From Thermoplasmatota archaeon (GTDB taxonomy: Archaea; Thermoplasmatota; JASEFT01): a stretch of 64,000 nucleotides of DNA. The notes beneath the pieces are model-generated. The model was not told the DNA's origin. It searched no databases and saw only the letters and a list, made by a program, of their open reading frames with translations. The translations under genes were made by a program, and so were the position numbers. Positions 1-59,992 of the stretch are shown piece by piece; the first letter of the stretch is position 1, and each line of letters starts with the position of its first letter. The stretch covers positions 15,111-79,110 of the forward strand of contig JASEFT010000001.1 in assembly GCA_030018475.1 (NCBI GenBank). Direction: 5' to 3'.

Positions 1-951
1 GGCAGTCATGAGAAAGTCTCTGATAAAGATGCTAGAAATCTTTTAGGAATGCCTTTAAATTATATTTCTAGTAGCTCTAAATATCCTAATGAGTTTGAAT
101 ATGTAGGTAGTACTTCAAGAGGTACTGAAGTAAAGCTCAATAAAACATATCTAGAAGCTGATTTTAGAATATTAATTGGCGATGTAGAGCTCCATTATTT
201 TGCAGGATATGGCGGCGGAAGAAAATCTATTTTGCCAGGTGTTTCTGCACATGAAACTATTCAGAGCAATCACAAGCTAATGTTCGATAGAAACTGCAGA
301 CTAGGTAATTTGGAAAATAATCCTGTTCATTTAGATATGCTAGAAGCTTACGAGCTTGCAAACGTAGATTTTTTAGTTAATGTAGTGCAGAATGCGCAGC
401 GCAAACTTGTTGGCGTGTATGCTGGTAGCCATGACGCTTTTTACAAATGCGTTGAGCTCGTTGATAGAATGTGTAAAGTAAAAATATCTGAAAAACCAGA
501 TATTGTAGTTGCAGCTGCTGATGGTCATCCTCACGATATTGATTTCTATCAAGCAATTAAAGCTATTCAGACAGTTATTGAGGTTATAAAAGAAGGTGGA
601 GTGCTAATTCTTGTATGCAAATGCTCTAATGGTATTGGAAGCGATATATTTTATCAAGCAATGCAAAAATATAGTAGTAGTGACGAGGTAAAAGCTCATT
701 TACTTGAAAATTTTGTTATGGGTGTGCATAAAGCTTATTATTTACTTAAAGCTCTTGAAAAATTAAATATTATTTTAGTTTCTGAAATAGAAAGAAATAT
801 TGTAGAGCATGTTTTTAAATTAAGGTACGCAAAGAACATAGAGGCTGCCTTAAATTTAGCATTTGAACTTGTAGGCAAAGACTCAAATATTTTAGTTTCG
901 CCTAACGGAAGTACAACTCTTGTAGAGCTAAATCGTAATAAGAATGTTTAG
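1..951 (+). CDS. LarA-like (lactate racemase family, DUF2088) protein, 5' partial (continues upstream of window)
   Basis: Open frame from nt 1 with no upstream stop in the window. Motif HYFAGYGGGRK...H resembles the LarA H-x-F-x-G-x-x-GG-x-K nickel-pincer-cofactor binding region. Overlaps the next gene by 8 nt. Confidence 0.5.
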   Translation, partial: GSHEKVSDKDARNLLGMPLNYISSSSKYPNEFEYVGSTSRGTEVKLNKTYLEADFRILIGDVELHYFAGYGGGRKSILPGVSAHETIQSNHKLMFDRNCRLGNLENNPVHLDMLEAYELANVDFLVNVVQNAQRKLVGVYAGSHDAFYKCVELVDRMCKVKISEKPDIVVAAADGHPHDIDFYQAIKAIQTVIEVIKEGGVLILVCKCSNGIGSDIFYQAMQKYSSSDEVKAHLLENFVMGVHKAYYLLKALEKLNIILVSEIERNIVEHVFKLRYAKNIEAALNLAFELVGKDSNILVSPNGSTTLVELNRNKNV

Positions 952-7888: not shown

Positions 7889-8332
7889 TCACCAAATTTT
7901 TTCAAATTGTATTTCTGTATTGAGTTGTGCTAGACAGGAAGAACAATAATGCATTCTCAGCGAAGATATGTTACCCTGATAGTGTTCTTTTCCGTCCATA
8001 GCACAACCACAGGTAGTGTCATAGAGACCACAGTTATGCCCCAATTCATGCGTAAAAAACTGTACTTGTCTTTTCCAATATTTGCCCCCTGTCGAAACAG
8101 CATCCCAGTATATCATGTGATCAAAAAGTACGAATGTGTTTCCTGGTCGATAACCTTTCCCCCTATCAGTTTCGTCAATACCGCTTTTATGTGCCATTAT
8201 ACAGTACCTTAACTCAAAGGTAAAAGGGAAGAAACGAAAGGTGGCTAGGTGAAGGACGTAAGCCTCATTCTGTTCAGCCTTTCCTATTACTAGAAAAAGG
8301 CTTGATAGCATGTGACTAAGCGCCCTACTCAC
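7889..8332 (-). CDS. amzA: archaemetzincin-like zinc metallopeptidase
   Basis: HELGHNCGLYDTTCGCAM followed by a downstream CSSC. This fits the archaemetzincin pattern HExxHxxG...C...CxM...CxxC. Confidence 0.55.
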   Translation of the reverse strand: MSRALSHMLSSLFLVIGKAEQNEAYVLHLATFRFFPFTFELRYCIMAHKSGIDETDRGKGYRPGNTFVLFDHMIYWDAVSTGGKYWKRQVQFFTHELGHNCGLYDTTCGCAMDGKEHYQGNISSLRMHYCSSCLAQLNTEIQFEKIW

Positions 8333-8459
8333 AGTCTTGAGCTAGTCATCCTGTTCTTTGGGCTTGCTCTAGAGTAAGATAGCCGTTTCACCAAATCTCT
8401 TTAGAACTTCATGCTCTTGCAATCATCATATACTAAAGAGCTGTGCCGTTTCTGCGCTT

Positions 8460-8745
8460 AACTTAAGGCTCTCGCCTTGCAAGCTTGCGCTTGCGCTCCT
8501 GCTCTCAGAGGGAGGACTTTCCTCAGAAGCCTTTTTCTTTTCTTTCCAAGAAAAGAAAAAGCCTTCAGGGAAAAAAGAAAAGAAGCTACGCAATTAGTAA
8601 TTGTTATTGCATTAGCAATCTTCGTATTCTCAAGGGGTTGCAAGGCAATCCCTTGCTTCTTTTTCTTTTCCACAGAGCGCTTTTCTTTTTCTTTTAAAGA
8701 AAAAAGAAAAGGGCTCCCGTGAGCTATCTGCCTTCTCCTAGCCAT
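8460..8745 (-). ncRNA. candidate structured ncRNA, copy B of a two-member family (unknown function)
   Basis: A series of near-perfect hairpins (GGAA and CUUG loops) with an enclosing helix. ~70% identical to the plus-strand element at 44563-44856, with compensatory stem changes. A TATA-like box (plus 8746-8760) lies just 5' on the minus strand. The ORFs that overlap it are low-complexity artefacts. Confidence 0.5.
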
Positions 8746-39485: not shown

Positions 39486-39695
39486 GTGAAGGAATGCTCT
39501 ATTAGAGGTTCAGTACGTGGAGAGTATAGAATCGTACAAAGAGGAATCTCTACAAAAGAGTTGCGAGAGACTATACTAAAAGGTGCTAAGACAGTGAAAT
39601 GGAATAGAATAATATCAAGATACAAAAAACTTGAGGTTGTATGGAAGAAATTGCCCTGCTTGTATTTTGTGATAACGACCTATTGGAGGGAATAA
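39486..39695 (+). CDS. small basic hypothetical protein (possible toxin-like partner)
   Basis: 69-aa ORF overlapping the start of the downstream Zn-ribbon/AbrB gene. No recognised motif. Confidence 0.25.
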   Translation: MKECSIRGSVRGEYRIVQRGISTKELRETILKGAKTVKWNRIISRYKKLEVVWKKLPCLYFVITTYWRE

Positions 39696-40027
39696 GATGG
39701 AATGTCCTATCCGCCAAAAAGGAAAACTTGTATCAAAAAAAAATTGACTACTTGTATGAGGATTTGTATCTTGGTAAGTTCGAGGCGGATGTATGCAACC
39801 AATGCGGCGAGGCTTTCTTTACAGAGAATGCTATGAATAAAATAGAAAAGAAGGCAAAAGAGATAGGAATACGGGGTCTGGAGCGAAAAACAAAGATCTC
39901 AAGGTCCGGGAACTCGCTCATTATCCGAATACCGAAAGCAATTGCTGAGTTCGTTGGTGCAAAGGATGGTACAAGTGTCACCATTCGACCCGGTGGTAAA
40001 AGTAAACTTATCGTGGCAATGGAGTAA
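39641..40027 (+). CDS. YgiT/MqsA-type zinc-ribbon plus AbrB/SpoVT swapped-hairpin DNA-binding protein (antitoxin-like)
   Basis: VCNQCGEAFF...IEKKAKE zinc-ribbon half-motif. C-terminal SGNSLIIRIPKAIAEFVG AbrB-type motif. An A9 homopolymer at 39735-39743 separates an alternative MECP... start. Confidence 0.55.
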   Translation: MEEIALLVFCDNDLLEGIRWNVLSAKKENLYQKKIDYLYEDLYLGKFEADVCNQCGEAFFTENAMNKIEKKAKEIGIRGLERKTKISRSGNSLIIRIPKAIAEFVGAKDGTSVTIRPGGKSKLIVAME

Positions 40028-40039
40028 AACACGTATCCC

Positions 40040-40431
40040 CTATACTCGTTCCACAATTCCCTTCTCCGCATCCACAACCAGCTTATCGCCCGTTTTAATC
40101 TGCTCTATTTTAATTTTATCAACACATGGTATGCCTGGTAGGATCACACCGGTAGCAACGATAGTTTCGGTTTCTTCATTTATAATCGCTCTCGGCGCTA
40201 CACCATTCTTTTTCAAGCCGTAGATCGCATAAGAGCCTGCTGTAGAGCCCTTACCGCATGGGAACACCAGTATCTTATCCTTAACACATTTGCCCTCGAG
40301 CTCGTGCCACTTTTCTATTCACGGTACCTGTCTTTGCATCTATCCCGCCGTAAAAACCAAGAGGCTCTTTTGAAACGAGCGCTTCACCTTCTGCTTTTCC
40401 TGGACAGATTGTTCTCCCTCTCATAATAACC
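40040..40431 (-). pseudogene. phosphomevalonate dehydratase small subunit (aconitase X swivel, DUF126), frameshifted
   Basis: N-terminal part MRGRTICPGKAEGEALVSKEPLGFYGGIDAKTGTV stops after ...GQMC. The C-terminal part continues in another frame (KILVFPCGKGSTAGSYAIYGL...). A single extra A in gtgaAtagaa (plus ~40318-40325) accounts for it. Confidence 0.6.
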
Positions 40432-40850
40432 TCGCTATCAGCTCATCAATATTTTTGAAAACAACCTTCTGCTTGCAAAAACTAGGCAGATAATTTGCAG
40501 CCTTGCCTGAATTGACACCTGTGGTTTTGTAGCCTATTCTTTCAATAGGTGAAACAACCATGCAAGTATCTGCAACTATTTTACTCCCGGCATTTTCTAC
40601 AATCTTCGTATAACCCATTCTGTTAGCGCATTCCTTCATAACCCTTGAGGTGCAAATCCATAATGGTTTCTTCGGTTTTTTTCCCTTTTAGCTTCTCAGC
40701 TAAAACAGATATTTCTCTTAATGAAGCGTGCGGACAACCAAGAACCACAATATTCGGATCTTTACCTGTGTTCAGTTTCTCATAAGTCTCCTTTACAAAA
40801 TGCTCGTTAAACAAAATCACCTTCCCAAAGCCCCAGCCTTCTCCCATCAA
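40421..40850 (-). pseudogene. phosphomevalonate dehydratase large subunit (aconitase X, DUF521) C-terminal fragments, N-terminally truncated and frameshifted
   Basis: Two adjacent ORF pieces (..GCPHASLREISVLA..; ..ECANRMGYTKIVEN..). They cover only ~140 of ~390 aa. The 5' end abuts the transposase remnant. Confidence 0.55.
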
Positions 40851-40866
40851 ACCTCACCGTGTGATA

Positions 40867-41037
40867 ATGAATTTGAAACGGAAAAAGTTTTTTATCTCTG
40901 CACAGATTGGAGAAATAGAAAGATTTGCTAACTCAAAGAAATTATGTTCTGATGCAGGACTTGTTCCTTCATTAAAACGATCTGGAGGCTACTTAAAAAT
41001 GGGACATATACCAAAACCGAGAAGAAAATGGAGGTGA
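40867..41037 (+). mobile_element. IS110-family transposase C-terminal remnant (Transposase_20-like)
   Basis: FISAQIGEIERFANSKKLCSDAGLVPSLKRSGG matches the IS110-family (l)aeiGdisrF...laayaGLvP...SGg signature. It is truncated by a stop, and no N-terminal DEDD domain is present. Confidence 0.5.
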
Positions 41038-41177: not shown

Positions 41178-41675
41178 CTACTTTCTTTCTATTTTTTCCT
41201 GTTTCTTTATAGACTGAACAAAAATATGATATCTTGCTATTATGTGATGAAGTGTGATCTCGCCTATGATAACGTCATTCTCCGTTACTGGCAGGCGCCT
41301 CACGCCGTATCTTGACATCAAATCCAGTGCAGCTTTAATTGTAGTTTTTGGGGCGCATTTGATAAGCTTCTTTGACATTATGCTACCTGCAGTTGCTTCG
41401 TGCAGGGTTCTAACATCAGGTATGCCGAAAACATAAGATGGCAGCTTCTTAGGCGCGAGAATTGACAGAATATCGTGTTCCGTTATCACGCCAACCAATT
41501 TTTTAGTTTCCTTACTTTCGACAACCCAAACGTGGCTCTTCCCGCTCAAAACAGCTAACACGTGCTCCACATCTGTATCCTTTTCAATTAAAGGCAGGTC
41601 CCACAAACGCTTGTCCATAATTTCTTCTACCGTAAATTTGTAGAACTCGGGCACAACCACTTTTTCTTCATGCAT
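41178..41675 (-). CDS. tandem CBS-domain protein
   Basis: Two CBS repeats. 165 aa. Downstream of and co-oriented with the antiporter gene. Confidence 0.75.
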   Translation of the reverse strand: MHEEKVVVPEFYKFTVEEIMDKRLWDLPLIEKDTDVEHVLAVLSGKSHVWVVESKETKKLVGVITEHDILSILAPKKLPSYVFGIPDVRTLHEATAGSIMSKKLIKCAPKTTIKAALDLMSRYGVRRLPVTENDVIIGEITLHHIIARYHIFVQSIKKQEKIERK

Positions 41676-41704
41676 ATACTTCCCCTCTACCGACTTTTTA
41701 TGTA

Positions 41705-42928
41705 TTAAACCTTCTCCTTCTCTTTCTTTTCTTTTCTAATCATTTTCAGGGCTTTAACTAATAAAGGAGGTGTGATAAGAGTGGTAACGATAATCATGAT
41801 AAGTATAGCGGATGCTATATTCGAGCCTATAATCTTATAGTCCAATGCAAATTTGAGCAATATTAGTTCTACGCCCGCTCTTGGTATCATGGCAATACCA
41901 ACAGCAAAGGACTCGCGCCCGCTAAATTTAGATATCTTAGCGCCACCACCACAACCTACAATCTTACCGATTATTGCGACAATTAGAAGAACGACTGCGA
42001 ATAGCCCGATGGTTAAGAATGCGCGAACATCGAACTTCGTACCCATGAAAACAAAAAAGATAGGTATGAAAAAAGCACCACCGATCAACGATACGTGTTC
42101 TCTAACCTCAGCAGCCAAGCGGGACTGTCCAACAACCAAGCCTGCCACAAAAGCGCCAACAATAGATGCCAGCCCAATTTCTTCTGTTATCAGCCCGAAG
42201 AGTAAAACCACGATTAAGCCCAACAACAGAACGCTTTCCTTTCCTAGATGTATTTTTTCTGAGAATTTTCTAAACCCTTTTATTCCCAAAGTAAGAGCTA
42301 TCAGGAAAAATAGTACAACAAAAACAACAAGTAGAGATATTCTTGCTAGAGGTATAGTACCAGTTACCACGATACCCACAAGAGCGCTTATCATTACTAC
42401 GCCTATCACATCATCTACCACTGCTGCGCCCATAATCAACGTGCCAAGCCTAGTTCTTAACATTTTCAATTCTGTAAGAATTGAGGCGTTGACTCCAACC
42501 GATGTCGCCACTAGACTAACGCCTAGATATAGCGCGATGATAGTAGAAAAACCAAAAAAGATTGCCACCAAATAACCGAGTAGAAATGGAAAGATCACGC
42601 CTAAGGAAGCGACAACGCTTGAAGCAATTTCAAGCCTTTTAAATTCTTCAAAATTTATTGCCAAGCCCGTAGAAAATAGTAATAGGATTATGCCGATATC
42701 TGCAAGATGAGACATTATCTTTAGGTCATCTTCGGTGAAAATAAGGCTCTGCAGGCTTTGGATATCTACAAGCTGAGGTATAGGACCTACCAAAACGAGA
42801 TAGCCTAGGTTCCCAAGAATCATGCCCAAAATTATTTCACCAAGAATTACCGGCTGTTTTATTGCTCTTGACAATATTCTCCCCAATCCCACGGCAATGA
42901 GGATAATCAAGAGACTCAGGATAAACAT
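41705..42928 (-). CDS. CPA2-family monovalent cation:proton antiporter (Kef/NapA-like)
   Basis: 407 aa with ~12 TM and glycine-rich TM pattern (ILGEIILGMILG). Paired with the CBS protein. Confidence 0.7.
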   Translation of the reverse strand: MFILSLLIILIAVGLGRILSRAIKQPVILGEIILGMILGNLGYLVLVGPIPQLVDIQSLQSLIFTEDDLKIMSHLADIGIILLLFSTGLAINFEEFKRLEIASSVVASLGVIFPFLLGYLVAIFFGFSTIIALYLGVSLVATSVGVNASILTELKMLRTRLGTLIMGAAVVDDVIGVVMISALVGIVVTGTIPLARISLLVVFVVLFFLIALTLGIKGFRKFSEKIHLGKESVLLLGLIVVLLFGLITEEIGLASIVGAFVAGLVVGQSRLAAEVREHVSLIGGAFFIPIFFVFMGTKFDVRAFLTIGLFAVVLLIVAIIGKIVGCGGGAKISKFSGRESFAVGIAMIPRAGVELILLKFALDYKIIGSNIASAILIMIIVTTLITPPLLVKALKMIRKEKKEKEKV

Positions 42929-48266: not shown

Positions 48267-48734
48267 TTAGGAAGTTAGCCACACAGTTCCTGTCAAGCAA
48301 AGCAGTGTTACGAGCAAGCCTGCAATAATTACACCTATTGAGATAGTTAATATAGCCTTTGTAAGTTTAAGTCCGAAAAGATAAGCTATTAAGGAGCCGG
48401 TCCAAGCGCCTGTAAATGGTGATGGGATAGCTACGAAAGCTATAAGCCCTAGAGTTTTATATTTCTGGATTTTTGGGTTTGCTCTCCTCCTTGTACGGTC
48501 GAAAAGCCTTGTAAGAACTCTATCCCAGCGCTTGTATCTGCGCAGTAATATTTCTATATAACTAAAAAATAATATGATGAAAGGTACTGGTAAAATATTG
48601 CCGAGCACGGAAATTGAAAAAACTTGCCACAGCGGTAGGTTATAGAGAAGTCCCATTAGAATTGCTACTCTGAGCTCTGCGAAAGGCATCATTGAGATGA
48701 TAAATATTATTAGATGCGGTGTCAGTTCTAGCAT
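48267..48734 (-). CDS. small multi-TM membrane protein (COG2426-like), hypothetical
   Basis: 155 aa with 4 predicted TM. Confidence 0.4.
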   Translation of the reverse strand: MLELTPHLIIFIISMMPFAELRVAILMGLLYNLPLWQVFSISVLGNILPVPFIILFFSYIEILLRRYKRWDRVLTRLFDRTRRRANPKIQKYKTLGLIAFVAIPSPFTGAWTGSLIAYLFGLKLTKAILTISIGVIIAGLLVTLLCLTGTVWLTS

Positions 48735-48743
48735 TTTAATTTT

Positions 48744-49991
48744 TTATTCATTACTTATAAACTTGCCATAGCCTTTTTCGCCAACGAACTCTAAATTCTC
48801 AATTATAGGTGTGCCTCTTATAAATACCCATAGCGGAAATACCACTGAAAAATTTTCAAACGCGCTCCATTGGCATTTAGAATGTAGCTTAGAGCTTTTG
48901 ATTTTTTGCACTTCATTTAAGTCAACTAGTATCAAATCTGCGTCATAGCCTTTAGCAATTTTACCTTTTTTCAATTTGAGGAACGAGGCAGGCTTTTCAC
49001 AAAACAATTCTACAGCTCTTGCTAAAGATATTTTTTGCTCTCTCACCAAATTCAGAAGCAAAGGGTAGGTTGTTTCTACGCCAGGCATGCCTGGCGGAGC
49101 TTCTGAAAAATCTTTTTTCTCTTCAAGTGTATGCGGAGCATGATCACTTGCAATAATATCTATTTCATTTGCTTTTAGCGCTTGCCAGAGTGCGTTGCTG
49201 TCTTCCTTAGTTCTAAGAGGAGGTACAACCTTACCTAAGCCTTCTATCTTCAGTTTTGAGTTTGAATTTAGCAATAAATAATGAAGTGCAACTTCAGAAC
49301 TAAAATTTTTATTTTCTAGATAAGGGAGCGATTCCTTTGCAGAAACATGGCATATATGTAGAGGTCTTTTGGTAAAGGAAGATAATTTTTTTATAGCTTC
49401 TGGTTCAGCTTTCCAACTAAGCTTCATGTGCTCATTCAAGTTTTTTGCATGCCCTTGTTTAATGAAATTTTTATCTTCTGCATGGACCAGCAAAGGCTTA
49501 GAAATATTTTCTTTTTCTATCAATTTTAGAGTTTCTTCGTAAACTGAGAAATCAATTTCAGGCAGGTAGATTTTAAAGCCGGTAGCTAATTTAGCAAGTT
49601 TTTTTAGCTCTTTGCTCACTGCGCTAGCGTATAACCCGAAATCAATACACGACTTATTTTTTACAATTCTTAACTTATTTTGAAATCTTTCTACAGAATC
49701 TACTTTAGGTATTGTATTAGGCATATCTGCCACATAGCTTACACCTCCGAAGCAAGCTGCTAAACTTCCTGTGAAAAAATCTTCTTTATGCTCTAAACCA
49801 GGCTCGCGAAAATGCACATGAACATCTACACCTGAAGGTAAAATAAGTTTAGAGCCGAAATCTAAGTTTTTTTCTCCCTTAAGCACTTTTTTTATTTCTA
49901 CAATTCTACCGTTTTCAATTCCAACGCAGCACTTCATTAACTCGTACTCGCCACCAAGCCAGAGATTACCTTCTATTACAAGATAGCTCAT
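48744..49991 (-). CDS. pyrC: dihydroorotase
   Basis: DVHVHFREPG (DxHxH) and SDHAPHT motifs. 415 aa. Confidence 0.8.
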   Translation of the reverse strand: MSYLVIEGNLWLGGEYELMKCCVGIENGRIVEIKKVLKGEKNLDFGSKLILPSGVDVHVHFREPGLEHKEDFFTGSLAACFGGVSYVADMPNTIPKVDSVERFQNKLRIVKNKSCIDFGLYASAVSKELKKLAKLATGFKIYLPEIDFSVYEETLKLIEKENISKPLLVHAEDKNFIKQGHAKNLNEHMKLSWKAEPEAIKKLSSFTKRPLHICHVSAKESLPYLENKNFSSEVALHYLLLNSNSKLKIEGLGKVVPPLRTKEDSNALWQALKANEIDIIASDHAPHTLEEKKDFSEAPPGMPGVETTYPLLLNLVREQKISLARAVELFCEKPASFLKLKKGKIAKGYDADLILVDLNEVQKIKSSKLHSKCQWSAFENFSVVFPLWVFIRGTPIIENLEFVGEKGYGKFISNE

Positions 49992-49993
49992 AA

Positions 49994-50596
49994 TTATTCC
50001 TCAACAAGTTTCCTTTCAACTATTTTCCCTCTAGGCGAGACCTCTGAAAATATCTGAGCTTGGAATTTATAAATTTTGATGTCTTTACTCAGCCAAGCAT
50101 CTGGTGGTAAGCCTGCTTTCATACACACATGTGTAAGAAAATCTTCTTCATCCCACTTCCACTCGACAGGAACTTGCGGTAGCAAAATACCTCTAAAAAG
50201 AGCTTTCTCTGCAATTAGTCCGTCAACGCCAATCTTAATCTTCTCTTTGTATTCAAGAGGATGTCTGACTTCAATTAGCTCAGGGTGTGTTAAAATACTT
50301 AATTCTACAACTATTTTATCAATTTCTTGCTCAGTTAAAGGCTCAAATCTAGGGTCGTTACATGCGTTCTGAGCACTCTCTATTATCGCATTTGCTAGTT
50401 CTAAACTAGGTTCTAGATAACCTATACATCCACGTAGCTCTTTCTCAGGATATGTATTGATAGTAACGAACACGCCTAATTTTTGATCGAATTTAGCTGA
50501 TAACTTTTCTGTGATTTTTGGCTCGCCTTTCACATATCTTTCAATCGTTTCTCGTGCAAGCTTCACTGCCTTTATACCTTCTTCTAAAGAGAGCAT
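49994..50596 (-). CDS. AMMECR1 domain protein
   Basis: Conserved LRGCIGYLEP motif. 200 aa. Confidence 0.8.
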   Translation of the reverse strand: MLSLEEGIKAVKLARETIERYVKGEPKITEKLSAKFDQKLGVFVTINTYPEKELRGCIGYLEPSLELANAIIESAQNACNDPRFEPLTEQEIDKIVVELSILTHPELIEVRHPLEYKEKIKIGVDGLIAEKALFRGILLPQVPVEWKWDEEDFLTHVCMKAGLPPDAWLSKDIKIYKFQAQIFSEVSPRGKIVERKLVEE

Positions 50597-50653
50597 GCTT
50601 TGTTAATGCGCTCCGAAGGTTTTTAATTTTACTACTGCTATTCTATTTTCTGA

Positions 50654-51766
50654 ATGTTCGCGAAAAGAATGAAAAGTATAGAAGTTACTGGTATAAGAAA
50701 AATGTTCGAGCTTGCAGGCGAAGGAGCAATTAATCTAGGACTTGGCGAGCCCGATTTTCAACCTGCTCAACACATAAAAGAAGCGCTAGAAAAAGCTCTG
50801 GCAGATGGTTTTAATAAATACGGTCCTACTGCAGGTATTTATCAGTTAAGGGAAGCGGTTGCAGAAAGGCTAAAAAAATACAAGTCAGATATTACTCACG
50901 ATGAAATAATTATTACTGCAGGCGCTACCGAAGCTCTGCATGCAGCTATGCTCACTTTTATTGAAAAAGGCGATGAGGTTTTAGTTCCCAACCCAGGCTT
51001 TCCGCTATATCCAACTGAAGTTTCACTTGCAGGCGGCAAACCTGTTTTTTATAGACTGAAAGAGGATTTCATGCCTAACGTAGCTAATTTTAAGGTTAGT
51101 AAAAAAACCAAGGCTATTATTGTGAACTCGCCTTCTAATCCCACAGGAAGTGTTTTTAGCAAAGAGAAAGTAAAAGAAATAATAGAATTTGCAGAAGATA
51201 ATGACTTAATTATATTTTCAGATGAGGTTTACGACGAAATAATCTACGACTGCGAGCATTTCTCTTTTCTAGGAAATTACGATAATGTAGTGCACATAAA
51301 TTCATTTTCCAAAACTTATGCTTTGACAGGCTGGAGGCTTGGCTATTTAGCCGCTAAAAAAGAATTTGTTAATGAAATATTGAAAATGCATTACTATACA
51401 GTGGCATGTCCGCCTACACCTACTCAGTATGCAGCGCTTACAGCACTTAAAAGTTCACAGGAATGCGTTAAAAAAATGGTATCAGAATTTAGAAAAAGGC
51501 GCGATACAGCTATAAAAATCATCAATGATATGAAGGGCTTTCGCTGTGTGCCGCCCAAGGGCGCTTTCTATCTATTCCCTTCTTATAACTTAGATATTAC
51601 TTCTGAAAAGCTCGCACTGAAAATACTTGAAAAAAACGTTATTTGCGTTCCTGGAATTGCGTTTGGCACTGCTGGCGAAAGCCATTTAAGAATTTCTTAT
51701 GCAAATTCAATTGAGAACATAGAAAAGGGCTTGGGAATAGTCAGAGAAGTTGTTGAAAAGCTTTAG
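50654..51766 (+). CDS. class I/II PLP aminotransferase (paralog of 2075-3238)
   Basis: NSPSNPTG and SFSKTYALTGWRLGY motifs. The C-terminus RISYANSIENIEKG is nearly identical to that of the first paralog. Confidence 0.85.
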   Translation: MFAKRMKSIEVTGIRKMFELAGEGAINLGLGEPDFQPAQHIKEALEKALADGFNKYGPTAGIYQLREAVAERLKKYKSDITHDEIIITAGATEALHAAMLTFIEKGDEVLVPNPGFPLYPTEVSLAGGKPVFYRLKEDFMPNVANFKVSKKTKAIIVNSPSNPTGSVFSKEKVKEIIEFAEDNDLIIFSDEVYDEIIYDCEHFSFLGNYDNVVHINSFSKTYALTGWRLGYLAAKKEFVNEILKMHYYTVACPPTPTQYAALTALKSSQECVKKMVSEFRKRRDTAIKIINDMKGFRCVPPKGAFYLFPSYNLDITSEKLALKILEKNVICVPGIAFGTAGESHLRISYANSIENIEKGLGIVREVVEKL

Positions 51767-54700
51767 AATAAAAGCAACGAGAGTATAGGCGCTATAAAAA
51801 TATAATGTGTTGCGGTATCTGTTATTCGAATAGAGTTCCTGCGCGTGCTCAGTGAAAAGCCTCCAAAATTTGTCAGCGCAAGTTTATCTAGCTTGCCTAC
51901 TGGCGTACTGACAAGTATTTTGAGATTTATTTGGAGCTCTTTGACATTACAACTTAGTTCTAGAACAGGCATTTTACCAAACAGCGAATGAACAGCAAAT
52001 CTCACGCTAGTTAGCTCTACAGCTAAAAGCTCTAATTTCTCCACTCTTGCTAGTCCCACTGTAGCGTTACCAGCCTCGAACAATAGCTTATCTACGTCGC
52101 CTGTCATGAGCACAGTATCACTTTCGCTTCTCACTGAGTAATACTTCAGCCCTTCTACGTATAGCTTGTACTCTCCCTCTCTCCCAACAAGCTCGCCTGC
52201 TAGCTTTAGCTGAAAATCAAATTTCTCAGAAGCACTGATATTGAATTCAGGCAAGGCTTTATGGATAGCAAACGTCTCACCAACTAATTTCGGTGAAGGC
52301 AGTATTTTGAACTCAAATTTTTCAGGTAGTTTATGAGCTAGGAAGTAGCTTTTACGCGTTCCTTTTCCTCCTGCAATATTTAGATAGATAGCAGGTGTGG
52401 AAGAGCTTGCTTCCCAAACCATAGTAAGATTAGGCCTACGAGTAAAAGTTAAACTTAAGTTCTGAGGTACGTTAGCTATTAAAATCTCTATACTTAAATT
52501 TAGTTGCTCAAGCGTTTCTGTTAGTGTAACTTCAACTCCATCTTTCACAACCTCTTCTTCAACTATTTTTATAACTCCGCTTCCGTTTTTCAGTTCGGTA
52601 ATATTCAATAGATGCGCAAATAGTTTTGTATTATCCCTTTCTAAACTAGCGGTAAGCCAGTTAAAAGAGCTTACCCAGTTTTCAAATAAATATCTTAGCT
52701 CAAGACCGTTGCTCCTGTTCAAACTAAAAGTTCCATTTTGAGGTAGCTCTAAATACATTTTACTGTGTAAAGATGATTTTGTAGCGCTCAATGCTATTCC
52801 GTGAGTCCAAGGTAGTGTGTTTTCATCAGCGCTAAGATTAGCAATAATGATTGGGGCTTGAGCAGAAGTATAAGAGAACGTTAGGCTCTCGCTAAGTATA
52901 AGCTCTTCAAACAACTTGCCAAAGGTATGCGTAGCTTGCTCTAGAGCATTAGCAAAGGAAGATAATACTTCGAGCTTTGAAAAGTTCAGCTCCTCAAGTT
53001 CAGGTATCGCAACTAAAGGTCGCGCTAATGAAATATTGATTTTAGTAGCTAAGTTCTTAACCAATATTTTTCCTCCAGCGTAATTAGCGTTGAGAAGTAC
53101 TTTCAGAGGGTATTCTTTGAAGAGCTCTAGCTCAAAGATTTCCCCGGCTCGTAAAAATTTAAGTTTCTCTAGTCTTAGAGCTATCGCACTCTCAAAAGTA
53201 TTTACGAAAAGGTAGTTATCAGTCATTTTATAGAAATGTCCTTTACTCAATGCGCAGTGTAGCTCAACCTCAGAACCGAATTCAAAACTGACATTTTGAT
53301 TCTCTCTTGTAAAATTACCTTCCTGCGCATTTTTTACATATCCTTCTAGATTATAATTTTGAGTTTTTGCTATAATAGCAAGTTCTACAGGCTCCTTGAA
53401 AATATAACTCAGCCCTTTAACGCTACCTTCAATTGCTAGTTCTGATGGAAGCTTAGAAATATCAACTAAAATTTCTATACCCTTGTAAATGCAAATAGCT
53501 TTGAATGCCTCGTCACCGGCGCTCCTTTTTAGTAAGAGAGTTATATTTCTACCGAGCGATAGCTTGAGCTCTGTAACATTTGTCAAGCCTGCTTGGATTG
53601 AAGTGTTGAGCGACCCAATATAATTACCTGACAGCAGTAATTGTTCTGCATTTACAGTATTATTCTCAACACTACCCTTTAGAAATGCAAATTCAAGTTT
53701 AGCTATAGGAGACTGAAGGTGAAACACGTTATCAGGAGCGTAGAATGTTTCTGAGATACTTCTTAAAGCCTTCCGCACTCTGTTCATTGCGGCAGATATC
53801 CTTGCAATAACATAATTTAGAGCTCTACCGATAAAAGTATCACTGGCGTCTGGATTGAGCTCTTCTTTAGGTGGAATTGTAAAAGTACCTCTCAGCACAA
53901 GCTTTATTGGTAAATTTAAAAGCTCTAGTTTGGCTATCTGCCCAGCACTGAAATCGTAATAGATAGATGAAAATTTAGAGACTGTGCCTGAGGCGTTGTA
54001 TTCAAGGACAGAGAACGGCCTCCCAATCTCAGCTGATAGATTTATAATTGATAGATTTAGATTTGAAGGTAAGTTGCTGAGCTCGAATTCCCCATATAAA
54101 TTTTCATCTTTGTAGCAAGCGCTAATATTTGTCTCTTCGCTTCCAGACCAAGTTAGAGCTGTTCTTTCAGCAACTTCTTCATAGTAGATATTTCCATATT
54201 TTATTCCAGGCGAGAATCTTGCCTCAAACGAATTTAAAGCTTTCACAGGCTGAAATTGCGCGTAGCCTATAAAAATTGAGAGTTCAGAAATTTGTATATC
54301 CATATTCCAAGTTATTTGATAAGGTGGTGTTACGTTAATTATGGTCTGCCCGCCCATCGCAAAAGCAACGGCTTCAAGTGTAATATTTTCAGAAATTGCG
54401 GTAAAAGAAAAAGTCCCAGGTAAAGAATAGAAATAAAAACCAATTATCCAAATATAAGTTTTATTTTCGTAACTTACGGGTTTGACGAAATAGATCGTCA
54501 GGTTATCAAGCTCTCTAGCTCTATAAATATTGATATTTAACCCACCAATCAGGTGAGTGGGTGGTTCCCACCAATCCCTAAAAGGCTCGTTCACTATGCC
54601 AGTTAATACTAACGAAACAACAAAGTCGTCGTCGCCATCCCCATCAACATCTATAGAATTATTTTCATGTAGAGTAAATCCCAATTGAGGTATTGCACCG

Positions 54701-55824
54701 CCAGCTACGCCATCTCTATCAACTTGTAAAATATCATTGTAATAAGTGAATACATAATATCTTCTATCTATAGTGGCTGTTGCAACGTTGATAGTAATAT
54801 CTTCTAGCAGAGGTTTATCATCAACGCCTCCCAAAAAAACTACTGCATACATAAAATATCTTCCTGAGACAACTTCCTTAACAATTTCCTCAAAATCCGG
54901 GAATAGTTGCTTAACCGCCTCTGGAATCACGTCTCTGGAAGACCAAACTGGTACCCAAATCCCGAGAGTAAGGTTATAGGAGACCCCAACAATGATTACA
55001 ATCTCTGATAAGTGAGGTTGAGTTGTAGGATGCCAAACAACATTTTTCAAAACTGCATTATCTGTCCCTGAATCTAAAGGTGTAGAAATGAACACACCTT
55101 GAGCAGCAAGGGTATGCAGTCTAATCATATCATTTGCTATATCTACGTTTTCGCTAAAAGAGCAATTATTCCGAAAGTCAGCAGTTGTTGTATGGGTCCA
55201 TGGTTTATAAGTAGTTTCTGGAGTGATATTTGCATTCTCAATATCTTCAAATATTCTTGACCATTCAGGCTTTGGCTTACTTATTCTACCTACGTTATAA
55301 CTTATTTCTTTCGGCGATTTCTTTTCATAACCCCAGTCGAGCTCGTTAACTAAGTTCTCTGCCCTCTCTTTTACTAAGCCACTCGAACTTTCAAATTCTT
55401 GCTTCGCAAGCTCAAGTTCTTGCGGTATACCGAAGTCATTCGGTACAATTCTCGTTTCGCCAGTAGGTATAAGCGATGCTAGCTGTACGCTTGTGAGAAT
55501 TATTGCAACTACAAGAAGTATCACTATAGGCTTTATTATCCTCTGCTTTAGGAAATTCTTTAGCTTAGAACGGATAGAAACAGGAGTAGGTTTGGATGGA
55601 GCAAGAGGGGGCTCAGCTTCCTTTACCTCTTTTTCAAGCTTTGGCTTGGCTTCTTCCTTTCTTATCTCTTTCTTGGGTTCGGGCTTAGGCTCTGGCTTTG
55701 GGAGCGGCTCCCTTAAAATACCAACAGCTTTACACTCAGGGCATTTAACTTTCAAAGGTCTTTTCTTAGATGTTACTTCTATGATATGTTCGCATTTATG
55801 GCATTTGACTTTAACCTTTTCCAT
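51763..55824 (-). CDS. giant membrane-anchored surface protein with cytoplasmic N-terminal zinc ribbon, 1353 aa
   Basis: N-terminal CHKCEH...CPECK zinc ribbon, then a Pro/Glu/Lys-rich linker, a TM (IVILLVVAIILTSVQLASLI) and a ~1200-aa sequon-rich ectodomain. Confidence 0.7.
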   Translation of the reverse strand: MEKVKVKCHKCEHIIEVTSKKRPLKVKCPECKAVGILREPLPKPEPKPEPKKEIRKEEAKPKLEKEVKEAEPPLAPSKPTPVSIRSKLKNFLKQRIIKPIVILLVVAIILTSVQLASLIPTGETRIVPNDFGIPQELELAKQEFESSSGLVKERAENLVNELDWGYEKKSPKEISYNVGRISKPKPEWSRIFEDIENANITPETTYKPWTHTTTADFRNNCSFSENVDIANDMIRLHTLAAQGVFISTPLDSGTDNAVLKNVVWHPTTQPHLSEIVIIVGVSYNLTLGIWVPVWSSRDVIPEAVKQLFPDFEEIVKEVVSGRYFMYAVVFLGGVDDKPLLEDITINVATATIDRRYYVFTYYNDILQVDRDGVAGGAIPQLGFTLHENNSIDVDGDGDDDFVVSLVLTGIVNEPFRDWWEPPTHLIGGLNINIYRARELDNLTIYFVKPVSYENKTYIWIIGFYFYSLPGTFSFTAISENITLEAVAFAMGGQTIINVTPPYQITWNMDIQISELSIFIGYAQFQPVKALNSFEARFSPGIKYGNIYYEEVAERTALTWSGSEETNISACYKDENLYGEFELSNLPSNLNLSIINLSAEIGRPFSVLEYNASGTVSKFSSIYYDFSAGQIAKLELLNLPIKLVLRGTFTIPPKEELNPDASDTFIGRALNYVIARISAAMNRVRKALRSISETFYAPDNVFHLQSPIAKLEFAFLKGSVENNTVNAEQLLLSGNYIGSLNTSIQAGLTNVTELKLSLGRNITLLLKRSAGDEAFKAICIYKGIEILVDISKLPSELAIEGSVKGLSYIFKEPVELAIIAKTQNYNLEGYVKNAQEGNFTRENQNVSFEFGSEVELHCALSKGHFYKMTDNYLFVNTFESAIALRLEKLKFLRAGEIFELELFKEYPLKVLLNANYAGGKILVKNLATKINISLARPLVAIPELEELNFSKLEVLSSFANALEQATHTFGKLFEELILSESLTFSYTSAQAPIIIANLSADENTLPWTHGIALSATKSSLHSKMYLELPQNGTFSLNRSNGLELRYLFENWVSSFNWLTASLERDNTKLFAHLLNITELKNGSGVIKIVEEEVVKDGVEVTLTETLEQLNLSIEILIANVPQNLSLTFTRRPNLTMVWEASSSTPAIYLNIAGGKGTRKSYFLAHKLPEKFEFKILPSPKLVGETFAIHKALPEFNISASEKFDFQLKLAGELVGREGEYKLYVEGLKYYSVRSESDTVLMTGDVDKLLFEAGNATVGLARVEKLELLAVELTSVRFAVHSLFGKMPVLELSCNVKELQINLKILVSTPVGKLDKLALTNFGGFSLSTRRNSIRITDTATHYIFIAPILSLLLF

Positions 55825-55870
55825 CAGTGAGTAAATTCTCTGGCGGATATATAAACTATAGCTCGAAAGA

Positions 55871-55944
55871 TGCGTCTGCCGGGATTTGAACCCGGGCTAT
55901 GAGCTTGGGAAGCTCAAGTCCTAACCAGACTAGACTACAGACGC
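55871..55944 (-). tRNA. tRNA-Gly (anticodon CCC), no encoded CCA
   Basis: Manual cloverleaf fold. Acceptor GCGUCUG/CAGACGC, D-stem GUCU/GGAC, anticodon stem UGAGC/GCUCA with loop UUCCCAA, T-stem CCGGG/CCCGG with loop UUCAAAU, discriminator A. Confidence 0.9.
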
Positions 55945-55989
55945 TCCAATACCAAAATAACTTTACGCTCGTTTAAAAGTTGCTTTTAG

Positions 55990-56571
55990 AAGAACTGGTG
56001 CGAGCAAAGTAGTAAAGGTATGAAGAAGATAGCAAGCATGCCTATGTCCTTTATCGCAGATAGATCTATTATTGCGCCAATCCAGACGAAAAAACAAAGG
56101 TATGAAAAATTAAATCATAACCGGCAATGACATAGTGCCGTTTAGCACTCTAGTTAGTAAAAACGGTCCTAGCAAGATTCCAGCAAGTATTTCTCCAATA
56201 ACCGTCAGCTGCTTGAGCTTTTCAAATGCATAGCCTAACGCTTTTGCAGCGATAATTGCAAGTGCAATCTCAAGCAGCATTTTCAGACAGAAGTCAAGTC
56301 AGGCATGCCGAATCTATAAGAGGGAAAACTTTCGGTGCGAAAATATTAAGGACGTTATGCTCAGTAATTACACCTACAACTTTTCTGCTGCCTTCACTCT
56401 TTACAACCCAAATATGGTCTTTACCTCATAAAATCGCTAATACTTTATCCAAAACCGCTTGTCAACAATATCTTCAACTTTAAGCTCGTAAAACGATTCC
56501 GTTAATTCCTTCTGCTCAGTCATGGCTTTTAAAAGGCGATAGAATGGCTTAAATATTCTCATTACTATATG
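55990..56571 (-). pseudogene. degraded duplicate of the CBS-domain protein plus CPA2 antiporter pair (remnants)
   Basis: Minus-strand fragments FYELKVEDIVDKRFW and WVVKSEGSRKVVGVITEHNVLNIFAPK match the CBS protein at 41178-41675. MLLEIALAIIAAKALG...VIGEILAGILLG and FFIPLFF match the antiporter at 41705-42928. Multiple stops and frameshifts. Confidence 0.7.
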
Positions 56572-56651
56572 AATAAAACGGTGAAAATAAGATTAGCGTA
56601 ATAAAAGGTATCTCAGAAACTCTATACAAAGCTTACAAAAAGAAGTTAGCG

Positions 56652-57464
56652 TTGGATGAGTTACTACGTAAAAAAACAGGGCTAAAAATTAACTTGATGA
56701 AGCAACTGTCAGATAGTTTCTCTAAAGTTTACGAGAGGAAGCTTACTGAAGAGATCTTAGCAAATCCTCTTCCTAATCATATAGCTATTATAATGGACGG
56801 AAATAGAAGATTTGCAGAAAAGCTAGGCTTGAAGCCTATTGAAGGACATGTCATGGGCAGGGATAAACTAGAAGAAGTGCTTGACTGGTGTTTAGAGCTA
56901 GGTATAAAGATAGTTACTGTTTATGCGCTTTCTACGGAGAATATTATGAGAACTGCTGAGGAGTTAAAAGCGCTCTTGGAACTTTTCACAGAAAGTTTCA
57001 GAAAGGCTGGCGATGATGAAAGAGTACACAGAAACAAAGTAAGAATAAAAGCTATTGGCAGAGTAGATATTTTGCCTAGAGAAGTTCAAGAATCGATAAA
57101 ATATGCAGAAGATAGGACAAAAGAGCACGAGAATTACTATCTTAACATAGCAATAGCTTACGGGGGCAGGGAGGAAATAGTGCAGGCTGTGAGAGGAATT
57201 GCAAATGATGTGAAGGTTGGTAAATTAGATGAAAGCAGTATAAACGAGGAGCTAATATCTTCTTATCTCTATACTAAAGATTTGCCTGATCCTGATTTGA
57301 TTTTAAGGACTTCTGGTGAGGAAAGAATCTCTAATTTCCTGCTCTGGCAGCTTGCTTATTCAGAACTATATTTTGCAGATGTTTATTGGCCTGAACTTAG
57401 AAAGATAGATTTTCTTAGAGCAATAAGAGCTTATCAGCATCGTCAGCGCAGGTTTGGAGAGTAA
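56652..57464 (+). CDS. uppS: cis-prenyltransferase (undecaprenyl/dehydrodolichyl diphosphate synthase)
   Basis: HIAIIMDGNRRFA and downstream RTSGE..SNFLLWQ motifs. 270 aa. Confidence 0.85.
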   Translation: MDELLRKKTGLKINLMKQLSDSFSKVYERKLTEEILANPLPNHIAIIMDGNRRFAEKLGLKPIEGHVMGRDKLEEVLDWCLELGIKIVTVYALSTENIMRTAEELKALLELFTESFRKAGDDERVHRNKVRIKAIGRVDILPREVQESIKYAEDRTKEHENYYLNIAIAYGGREEIVQAVRGIANDVKVGKLDESSINEELISSYLYTKDLPDPDLILRTSGEERISNFLLWQLAYSELYFADVYWPELRKIDFLRAIRAYQHRQRRFGE

Positions 57465-57499
57465 AATATATATTGAGTTAAAAATCTTTACTTATAAAG

Positions 57500-59992
57500 A
57501 TGAAAATAAAAAAGCTTAGCGCTGTGATAGCCTTTGTTCTTATATTGCTCTCGTCCCTGAGTTTTATTCCTTTAAATGCCAAAGGCGCTGTTGTGGAAAG
57601 TGATAGCGAAGTACCAATAGCTCTATATTTTCATAGGAATAATACAATGAATACCACTCCGCCAGCCGTAGGCGTAGAGGCGAAAGCATCACTAAAAGAT
57701 GGTGGATCAATAACTTTTTTCTCTCCTGAGTTGAAAGAGGATCTAACTGTGAACACAATTTACTGCAACGTTAGTTTTTATCTAGAGATCAAAGTTACAC
57801 AAGTACATACGCCGCACACTGATCCAAACGAAACTGTTGATGTGAAGTTGAGTTTCTCTTTCGAGAATCCAGAGCTGCGTGCAGAGGCTACAGAATGGTT
57901 TGAAGACGTTATCGAATGGAGTGGCTGGAAAACAGTCAATCTTACTTACGATAAGACTGGTAAGGTTACATTAAAAAAATATTCTAACTTAACTTTAAAA
58001 ATCTCTTCAAAAGCGGTTCCCTCGTCAATTCTTGCATACAACTATAATGTAACGCTTTACTACGACGAGAAAAATTACGCATCGCAGGTATCATTTCCTT
58101 GTTCGCCGGTAACAGCCACTGTAACTACAGAAGGTGGTACTGAATTCAAGCCTTATGCGCCAACCCCCGAAATACCATTTAAAGGAAACATAAAAGACGC
58201 TTTTGACAACGAAGACTTAAAAGAAGTAAGATTAGAAATCAATGGCCCAGGCTATCATTATACTACTCCGCCACTGGAAAATATAACAACCGGCGATTAC
58301 ACCTATAAATGGAACTATTCTGGTGAGAGCTCCAGACTGAAAGCAGGCAACTACACAGCAAGACTTAACGTAATAACTCATCAGCATACATTTTACAAAA
58401 CCACTAATTTTACGTTTATTGCCTGCGCTTTGGATTCATGGTCAAATCGTACATATGAAACAATACTTGTAGGCAAGTCTGCAAGCTATGCAGTAGCTAT
58501 AAGAAACACAGGTTCATATGATACTACAGTTACTATCAATATATCTTTCGATATACAAATTATACCCGGCGGAAGTCATTTATGGAACATAACTGTTTTT
58601 GACAAAGATAGAGGCGTTATTGTGGGTAACGTAAGTACTAACGCAAGCAGGAGTTTGTATTATGATGTTTACAATTTCAATGGCGGCAGTACTAAAAATC
58701 TTATTTTAACTGTAACTTCTGCAGACACCACAATAGGCGTGGATTGGAAATGCAGAGTAGATTTACATGCACGCTCGATTACTCCCGGCCATGAGGCAGA
58801 TGCGCCGCCAGTTACTATTTTCACTTATATTGCGGCGCCTTACGAAATAAATATCACATGGTCGAAAAGGTATGATTACATACTTGTTAACAGACTATAC
58901 CAGCTCGAGCTTACTGTAATTAATCTAGGCTCTATGCCGGATTCGGTTGAAATTGTGCTCAACTATACTAATAAAGCTGTCTGGAATATAACCTTAGAAA
59001 AGGACATCGTAGAAAATCTTAATCCCTATGGCTCACCAGGCTATTTTAGTGCAGTTAAACTTAACGTTACAGCTAATACCACCGCAGGTGCAGATAATAC
59101 TACACTAAACATTACTGCAGAATCTGTTTACGCGCCACTGGATTATAAAGCCAACTGGACTAATAAGACACTCAAATATTTAACTCTAGAGCTTAAGCGC
59201 GCGTTCGGAATATCTCTGCCTGATGTGGGTGAGTATACTAAGAATGTAGATGTGAAAGTTTCTCAAGATCAAGCGCAATATACAATCGCTCTAGAAACTA
59301 ATGACGAGATTCCTCATTTGGTTAGGCTAACTGCAAACGCAACTCCTCCTTTAACCGCAACTCTTGAAAGTACTTACGTAGAAGTCTCTAAAGCTACTCG
59401 TAAGGAAGTAATTTTAACAGTTACAGCTCCTAAAGGAACTCGCGCAGGCAGCTATACAACAATTATAAACGTGGGTATTGAGGTAGAAGGTATCGTTAGT
59501 CCGGAGCATACTAAAACGAAATCTGTAATTACAATTGTAAATACTTACTATGATATAGACGTGGTATGGTCTGACGAAAACATCAAGGTTATTAATCTTA
59601 CCGCCTCTCCAGGCGCTACGATAACGAAGAGCTTAAAAGTAACTAATAAAGGCAATAATTTTACAGATGTCGCTCTATTTCTGGCTAAGGGTTGGGAATA
59701 TGCTAGTTTAGAAACAGAGCGTATAGATGGATTGGCGCCAGCCCCCAACAACACCTGTAAAATAGATATAATTTTGAAAATACCTAGTGATGCAAAGCAC
59801 GGCCAGAAAATTCTAATTGAAGTAAGAGCTACTGCTTATGGCGAAACAGAAACTACAACTCTTATAATTGAAGTTACTAAAACAGAGCTGGAGCGCTTTT
59901 GGGACATTCTAGCTCAGATGGCTCATTTCATTATACTTTTAATCGCTGTTATTGTTGTTTTTGTAACGATGTGGCTGAAGAGAAGGAAGTAG
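57500..59992 (+). CDS. cell-surface glycoprotein-like protein with N-terminal signal and C-terminal TM anchor, 830 aa
   Basis: Signal (LSAVIAFVLILLSSLSF). Repeated Ig/CARDB-like segments with dense NxS/T. C-terminal TM plus basic tail (FIILLIAVIVVFVTMWLKRRK). Confidence 0.7.
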   Translation: MKIKKLSAVIAFVLILLSSLSFIPLNAKGAVVESDSEVPIALYFHRNNTMNTTPPAVGVEAKASLKDGGSITFFSPELKEDLTVNTIYCNVSFYLEIKVTQVHTPHTDPNETVDVKLSFSFENPELRAEATEWFEDVIEWSGWKTVNLTYDKTGKVTLKKYSNLTLKISSKAVPSSILAYNYNVTLYYDEKNYASQVSFPCSPVTATVTTEGGTEFKPYAPTPEIPFKGNIKDAFDNEDLKEVRLEINGPGYHYTTPPLENITTGDYTYKWNYSGESSRLKAGNYTARLNVITHQHTFYKTTNFTFIACALDSWSNRTYETILVGKSASYAVAIRNTGSYDTTVTINISFDIQIIPGGSHLWNITVFDKDRGVIVGNVSTNASRSLYYDVYNFNGGSTKNLILTVTSADTTIGVDWKCRVDLHARSITPGHEADAPPVTIFTYIAAPYEINITWSKRYDYILVNRLYQLELTVINLGSMPDSVEIVLNYTNKAVWNITLEKDIVENLNPYGSPGYFSAVKLNVTANTTAGADNTTLNITAESVYAPLDYKANWTNKTLKYLTLELKRAFGISLPDVGEYTKNVDVKVSQDQAQYTIALETNDEIPHLVRLTANATPPLTATLESTYVEVSKATRKEVILTVTAPKGTRAGSYTTIINVGIEVEGIVSPEHTKTKSVITIVNTYYDIDVVWSDENIKVINLTASPGATITKSLKVTNKGNNFTDVALFLAKGWEYASLETERIDGLAPAPNNTCKIDIILKIPSDAKHGQKILIEVRATAYGETETTTLIIEVTKTELERFWDILAQMAHFIILLIAVIVVFVTMWLKRRK

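Follow-up and report, generated by a model that had tools for sequence, protein, structure and literature searches.

The minus strand at 55963-56523 of the window (the whole 64-kb stretch of DNA analysed here) carries pieces of a CBS-domain gene and of a CPA2-type cation:proton antiporter gene that are interrupted by stop codons, frameshifts and extensive deletions. Judged by comparison with related sequences, these pieces are very probably what is left of an ancestral operon, with the CBS gene preceding the antiporter gene, that decayed in place by ordinary gene loss. Intact CBS and antiporter genes, in this order, adjoin tRNA-Gly(CCC) in three related Thermoplasmatota contigs (L081, L082 and L001). 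Identity of the antiporter pieces is 71% to the syntenic genes of L081 and L082, as against 28-36% to the antiporter of the intact pair located 14 kb away in the window (41178-42928), which identifies the remnant as an orthologue of the resident operon. An earlier note on this DNA had read it as a degraded second copy of that intact pair.

Anatomy of the remnant

The features of the locus are listed below in window coordinates.

51763..55824, minus strand: gene downstream of the tRNA, coding for 1353 aa; synteny anchor
55871..55944, minus strand: tRNA-Gly(CCC), intact (ARAGORN; Rfam RF00005, 67.7 bits)
55963..56280, minus strand: “type A” CPA2 antiporter, predicted pseudogene; ~318 nt left of ~1176 nt
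56040-55966, minus strand: antiporter residues ~373-390, running to the original stop at 55965-963
56109-56007, minus strand: antiporter residues ~275-310, the FFIPLFF piece, with a frameshift inside
56280-56125, minus strand: antiporter residues 1-52, with the ATG at 56280 and a stop at 56112-110
56286..56523, minus strand: CBS gene, predicted pseudogene; first CBS domain only, spread over three reading frames
56333-56286, minus strand: CBS residues 76-91; beyond this piece the second CBS domain and the spacer are gone
56458-56321, minus strand: CBS residues 34-79, with an in-frame TGA at 56428-426, then a further frame change
56523-56449, minus strand: CBS residues 1-25, with a frame change after the piece
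56524..56651, no strand: divergent intergenic region, retained between the decayed operon and uppS
56652..57464, plus strand: uppS (cis-prenyltransferase), intact (Pfam Prenyltransf, E 1.3e-83); synteny anchor

About 561 nt are left of an operon of about 1666 nt (the length of the L082 operon), that is, around one third of the original DNA. The deleted ~1100 nt include the second CBS domain and the antiporter core; the antiporter residues missing from the remnant are ~53-275 and ~311-372. At least four changes of frame come on top of the deletions, in addition to the two stop codons. The earlier note had recognised the antiporter N-terminus and the internal FFIPLFF piece, and had described stops and internal deletions: the two pieces are indeed found at 56280-56125 and 56109-56007, and the interruptions could all be mapped (TGA at 56426-56428, stop at 56110-56112, the frame changes and the deletions). 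The C-terminal antiporter piece, 56040-55966, was absent from that account.

With its frames disrupted in this way, the remnant cannot give a full-length product of either gene. In the intact relatives L001 and L082, antiporter residues ~53-275 hold the DD pair (TM5) typical of CPA2 proteins, and with this core deleted the remnant is unable to make a transporter. The Pfam profiles give the same picture: the CBS profile scores 18 bits (E 0.0038) against a gathering cut-off of 24, with only part of the first of the two tandem CBS domains kept, while Na_H_Exchanger stays below its gathering score (23.4 bits, E 3.3e-5, against 26.2) and, instead of a full domain with the TM5 DD motif, finds a match only for profile positions 9-45 and for one short internal stretch. 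The missing parts of the operon were sought across the 64-kb window and were not found elsewhere in it. No minus-strand ORF between the tRNA and uppS is longer than 56 aa, and the two pseudogenes are the only content of these 707 nt. The intergenic region at 56524..56651 presumably still carries the uppS promoter; start codons for uppS are available at 56652 (TTG) and 56697 (ATG).

The intact operon at the same site in relatives

In TBLASTN searches with the L082 and L081 antiporters, the remnant was matched with 71% identity over 52 aa (E 3e-22), while the other pieces gave 69% over 29 aa and 65% over 23 aa (E 1e-11 and 1e-5). Over the 110 surviving antiporter residues, identity is 71% to L081 and L082, 65% to L001 and 64% to L083. 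Amongst themselves, the intact orthologues are 69-80% identical over these same 110 columns. The surviving sequence is thus barely beyond the normal divergence of orthologues, which implies that erosion went mainly through deletion. The L001 antiporter, used as a query, retrieved a large family that we term type A, in which P0021, P0018 and P0019 are nearest to the remnant pieces.

The pair is situated between uppS and the tRNA gene in L082 and L001. In L082, the order is uppS, then divergently the CBS gene, the antiporter gene, tRNA-Gly(CCC) and a gene for a 1193-aa protein; the divergent layout is like that of the window: uppS, on the minus strand, ends at 874-958, and position 1022 is the start of the CBS gene. 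In L081, CBS gene, antiporter gene and tRNA-Gly(CCC) are followed by genes for a 1143-aa protein, an aminotransferase, AMMECR1, an amidohydrolase and Sm_multidrug_ex. L001 has tRNA-Gly, antiporter gene and CBS gene, then uppS and an 858-aa gene; the CBS gene (164 aa) and the antiporter gene downstream of it (395 aa) are both intact and divergent to uppS. A genome scan with UppS yielded 80 Thermoplasmatota loci, the best being L001 with 66% identity. Among these 80 loci, the CBS–antiporter pair stands beside uppS in L001 only, and the synteny thus appears to be confined to the close clade of the window.

The neighbours in L081 and L082 follow one another as do their counterparts in window 48267-57464. 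Protein identities to the window are 70% for uppS (L082; 66% for L001), 67% for the aminotransferase, 69% for AMMECR1, 58% for the amidohydrolase and 63% for Sm_multidrug_ex. The range for these neighbours is 57-70%, the large protein encoded after the tRNA being left aside; the latter is 31% identical over ~1040 aa to its counterparts in L081 (1143 aa) and L082 (1193 aa). The start and the stop of the remnant, and its spacing to both neighbours, are placed as in the relatives.

The tRNA gene beside the remnant

The tRNA-Gly(CCC) gene is the sole tRNA gene in the window and is identical in sequence to the one after the intact L081 antiporter gene. Its distance to the antiporter stop is 18 nt in the remnant, compared with 24-33 nt in L081 and L082. 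Genes for tRNAs are common integration sites, and the earlier note had proposed an old integration or duplication next to this one. That proposal does not agree with the relatives: the pair is intact at the same place in L081, L082 and L001, and the other neighbours are collinear. The segment is hence present at the site in relatives, where a mobile element would be absent. Since an intact pair lies next to tRNA-Gly(CCC) in the three closest relatives available, the tRNA adjacency is ancestral. The direct repeat of the tRNA 3′ end that the earlier note suggested as a boundary mark did not turn up, the longest repeat of the tRNA or its flanks in the 64-kb window being 11 nt, which is at chance level. 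Likewise, no integrase or recombinase was found in the segment between the tRNA and uppS, which has no room for an integrase. With tRNA-targeted integrative elements and genomic islands, the remnant shares the tRNA adjacency only; it differs from them in having neither an integrase nor a duplicated tRNA segment, and in being represented in the relatives. The tRNA gene evidently has no role in the event and should not be regarded as an integration site.

The syntenic tRNA-Gly(CCC) of L001 (JASEEW010000095.1, positions 366-740, minus strand) is itself unusual. It lies in three pieces separated by two large inserts, of ~99 nt after the anticodon loop and of ~203 nt in the T-loop, and was missed by both ARAGORN and Rfam; after joining the three pieces in silico, ARAGORN calls a tRNA-Gly(CCC). 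The inserts and their flanks show odd short repeats (cagtagttagtag, ccctaatccctaac). The gene may have several introns of unusual length, or it may be disrupted.

Comparison with the intact pair of the window

The intact pair and the element fragment next to it are the following.

40867..41037, plus strand: IS110-family transposase fragment, 56 aa (Pfam Transposase_20, 27.7 bits, E 3.6e-6)
41178..41675, minus strand: CBS-pair protein, second gene of the intact pair (Pfam: two CBS stretches, E 4.1e-23)
41705..42928, minus strand: “type B” CPA2 antiporter, first gene of the intact pair (Pfam Na_H_Exchanger, E 1.6e-57; TIGR00932 CPA2, E 4.8e-40)

Homology between the two loci was evident in a TBLASTX comparison of 55945-56660 with the whole window, in which three linked minus-strand segments match the intact CBS gene, 41178-41675 (summed E 5.7e-21); the segments are 44 aa, 27 aa and 16 aa long, at identities of 57%, 48% and 44%, respectively. 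The translated alignment called for by the earlier note is therefore significant for CBS, and it includes both peptide matches quoted there. Significant homology is thereby given for both genes of the remnant, for the CBS gene by this summed E and for the antiporter gene by the three pieces aligned with L081 and L082. The remnant antiporter pieces align with the intact window antiporter at 28-36% identity, with E values of 1.8e-4 to 5e-6 in a search space consisting of the 716-nt remnant only.

What stands of the second-copy reading is this family-level homology of both genes; the copy itself does not. The gene order is opposite, CBS before antiporter in the remnant and antiporter (42928 to 41705) before CBS (41675 to 41178) in the intact pair, and in BLASTN the two loci share at best 65.8% over 155 nt (E 0.038), which is at chance level. 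Opposite order and chance-level DNA similarity argue against a simple duplicate, in which the order of the source, residual nucleotide similarity and a closest relative within the genome would be expected; for the antiporter pieces, the closest relatives are in other contigs. The CBS pieces do not discriminate in this respect between the intact gene of the window and the genes of the relatives: the best CBS fragment is 57% identical to the former and 56-60% identical to those of L081, L082 and L001. The type B antiporter is 34-36% identical to type A antiporters and is, by these measures, a distant relative of the remnant from a different subfamily, not its source.

Alternative explanations

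A degraded duplicate of the 41178-42928 pair, or a copy brought by a mobile element, that landed beside tRNA-Gly would account for CBS peptides that match the intact CBS gene (57% over 44 aa), and both the IS110 fragment adjoining the intact pair and the general propensity of tRNA genes to receive insertions would suit it. The reversed gene order, the absence of DNA similarity beyond chance, the affinity of the antiporter pieces to the syntenic orthologues and the presence of the operon at this very place in L081, L082 and L001 speak against it, as do the lack of a tRNA repeat longer than 11 nt and of space for an integrase, and the synteny of the gene across the tRNA. We consider this origin highly improbable. 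Even less credit, indeed next to none, is due to an artefact of sequencing or assembly, in which the operon would be intact and the breaks would stem from errors or from chimeric joining. The DNA does come from a metagenome-assembled genome, but an independent Logan assembly from another run (L089) agrees with window 51818-59620 at 99.82% over 7803 nt, gapless and with the remnant included, and the same remnant sequence in L089 indicates that it is not an assembly artefact. Two thirds of the operon are missing, which is beyond base-calling errors, and the flanks are collinear with the relatives.

The remnant could also be alive in some form, with a surviving ORF expressed in a new role or with the DNA kept as a promoter or terminator for uppS or the tRNA gene. 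Candidates would be a 56-aa N-terminal membrane hairpin (56110-56280) and a 41-aa ORF (56437-56562), both listed by gene callers in L089; moreover, the antiporter gene has kept its start codon, 52 residues in frame and the divergent promoter region upstream, and the spacers to uppS and to the tRNA are at ancestral length. A homologue of a protein truncated in this way was not seen, conservation of the fragments is no better than expected for recently inactivated sequence, and the mixture of frames, stops and deletions is the pattern of neutral erosion. Further copies of the remnant come from the same species only, and none of the 14 differences between the window and L089 falls in it. A live remnant is, on balance, very unlikely. 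Nothing observed contradicts decay in place of the resident operon, for which eroded prokaryotic pseudogenes are the closest known parallel. Inactivated prokaryotic genes reportedly shrink through deletions (the deletional bias known from work of the type of Mira, Ochman and Moran). The remnant resembles such cases in that an orthologue exists at the same locus in relatives, in its stops, frameshifts and large internal deletions, in its untouched flanks, and in surviving pieces whose divergence does not exceed that between intact orthologues. It shows no essential difference from such cases; what is particular is that both genes of an operon decayed together, and that a distant pair in reverse order is intact in the same genome.

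Strain differences and the large flanking genes

The 14 SNPs between the window and L089 are all located in the two large surface-protein genes that flank the locus, at 51763-55824 and 57500-59992. These genes are 31-34% identical to their syntenic counterparts, versus 57-70% for the neighbouring enzymes, and thus evidently evolve fast. The 1353-aa protein (51763-55824) has an N-terminal zinc-ribbon-like motif; the 830-aa protein (57500-59992) has Ig-like/NPCBM-associated domains and a C-terminal hydrophobic stretch that resembles a membrane anchor.

Identity and origin of the type B pair

The intact antiporters conform to the CPA2 (Kef/NapA-type) family: the L081, L082 and L001 orthologues and the intact window antiporter match PF00999, with TIGR00932 as their best NCBIfam model, and carry the DD pair in the expected helix (AAVVDDVIG, AAVIDDVIG). 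All four tested proteins score below the curated cut-off of TIGR00932 (138-164 bits, compared with 238). Each of the intact antiporters has an adjacent 155-168-aa protein with two CBS domains. In KefC, by contrast, a C-terminal KTN/RCK domain is fused to the transporter, while the CBS protein here is encoded by a separate gene. By analogy with other transporters regulated by CBS domains, the CBS-pair protein would act as a nucleotide-sensing regulator of the adjacent antiporter. Our literature search for CBS–CPA2 pairs in archaea returned nothing relevant.

The best matches of the type B antiporter are in MAGs of the same species (99-100%), followed by proteins in Hadesarchaea contexts (66-67%), where the antiporter also precedes the CBS gene, as in the window pair, with a similarly short spacer. 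In neighbour-joining bootstraps, it groups with the Hades-labelled clade, apart from antiporters labelled Thermoplasmatota, Thermococci, Methanofastidiosia and MSBL1, in 83% of the replicates; a position strictly within the Hades MRCA is obtained in only 17%. The intact CBS protein is 64% identical to CBS proteins of the L001 clade (type-A-linked Thermoplasmatota) and 53-59% identical to Hades-linked ones; neighbour-joining trees and bootstraps (164 columns, or 82 with the remnant included) assign it, with poor support, a position between the CBS clades of the L001 and the Hades type. The two genes of the pair thus have discordant nearest relatives, the antiporter in Hadesarchaea contexts and the CBS protein amongst type-A-linked Thermoplasmatota. 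The CBS protein being nearer to Thermoplasmatota and the antiporter nearer to Hades, the history of the intact pair is not a simple one.

Base composition also sets the pair apart. GC3 is 0.385 in the type B antiporter gene and 0.446 in the intact CBS gene, a value (z = 4.3) that none of the 35 other long ORFs of the window reaches; these have a mean of 0.317 (SD 0.03). The GC content of the contig is low, 38%. Given the sequence affinities and composition, horizontal acquisition of the type B pair from a foreign source is plausible.

A metagenome scan with the neighbouring 224-aa gene brought up relatives (at most 57% identity) that share a two-gene block, w431 and w224, with no collinearity beyond it. 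A larger transferred block including Cdc6 is not supported: Cdc6 occurs near the type B pair here and in Hadesarchaea, but with 35-36% identity and in a different arrangement.

The earlier note was right in placing an IS remnant beside the intact pair, namely the IS110 Transposase_20 fragment at 40867-41037, which is also called in the same-species contig L092 and sits between the intact CBS gene and fragments of aconitase X. The latter are three minus-strand ORF fragments at 40040-40850, with matches to aconitase X (positions 270-320 and 333-399 of the PF04412 profile) and to its swivel domain (PF01989); here a further gene of the window, or a pair of genes, has evidently decayed. On the plus strand at 39486-40027, small ORFs that overlap one another show a weak match to DUF4258 and a match to a MazE/AbrB-type antitoxin, and are likely to be a toxin–antitoxin module at the edge of the decayed zone. 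Elsewhere in the window, the minus strand at 8247-8538 encodes an archaeal RNase P RNA (Rfam RF00373, 133.7 bits), which confirms the archaeal origin of the contig.

Decay in place and its significance

In the Thermoplasmatota lineage to which the window belongs, the ancestral site of the operon was very probably between the divergent uppS and tRNA-Gly(CCC). The operon was inactivated and then eroded where it was located. The main damage is due to three large deletions, which removed the second CBS domain with the spacer, antiporter residues ~53-275 and antiporter residues ~311-372, and to which small frameshifts and the two stop codons added. The loss would have been tolerated owing to the type B pair (41178-42928), from a different subfamily and with overlapping function, which may have made the native operon dispensable. 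Such a displacement would be consistent with the presence of an intact second pair, its Hadesarchaea-nearest antiporter, its anomalous GC3 and its neighbourhood of IS110 fragment, toxin–antitoxin module and AcnX pseudogene.

A composite origin of the displacing operon can also be envisaged, in which a Hadesarchaea-type antiporter gained by horizontal transfer was combined with a CBS regulator that descends from Thermoplasmatota and may be a copy of the gene now decaying beside uppS. We regard this version as unlikely. If true, it would explain the association of a Hades-like antiporter with a CBS partner that best matches the type-A-linked Thermoplasmatota CBS proteins, and it would mean that the regulator was kept while the transporter was swapped.

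The practical consequence lies mainly in annotation: two pseudogenes, rather than small hypothetical ORFs, should be entered for the 700 nt that separate tRNA-Gly from uppS. The locus is a clean, small case in which an uncultured Thermoplasmatota lineage lost an operon by deletion, and it may show the replacement of one ion-transport module by a distantly related, foreign one.
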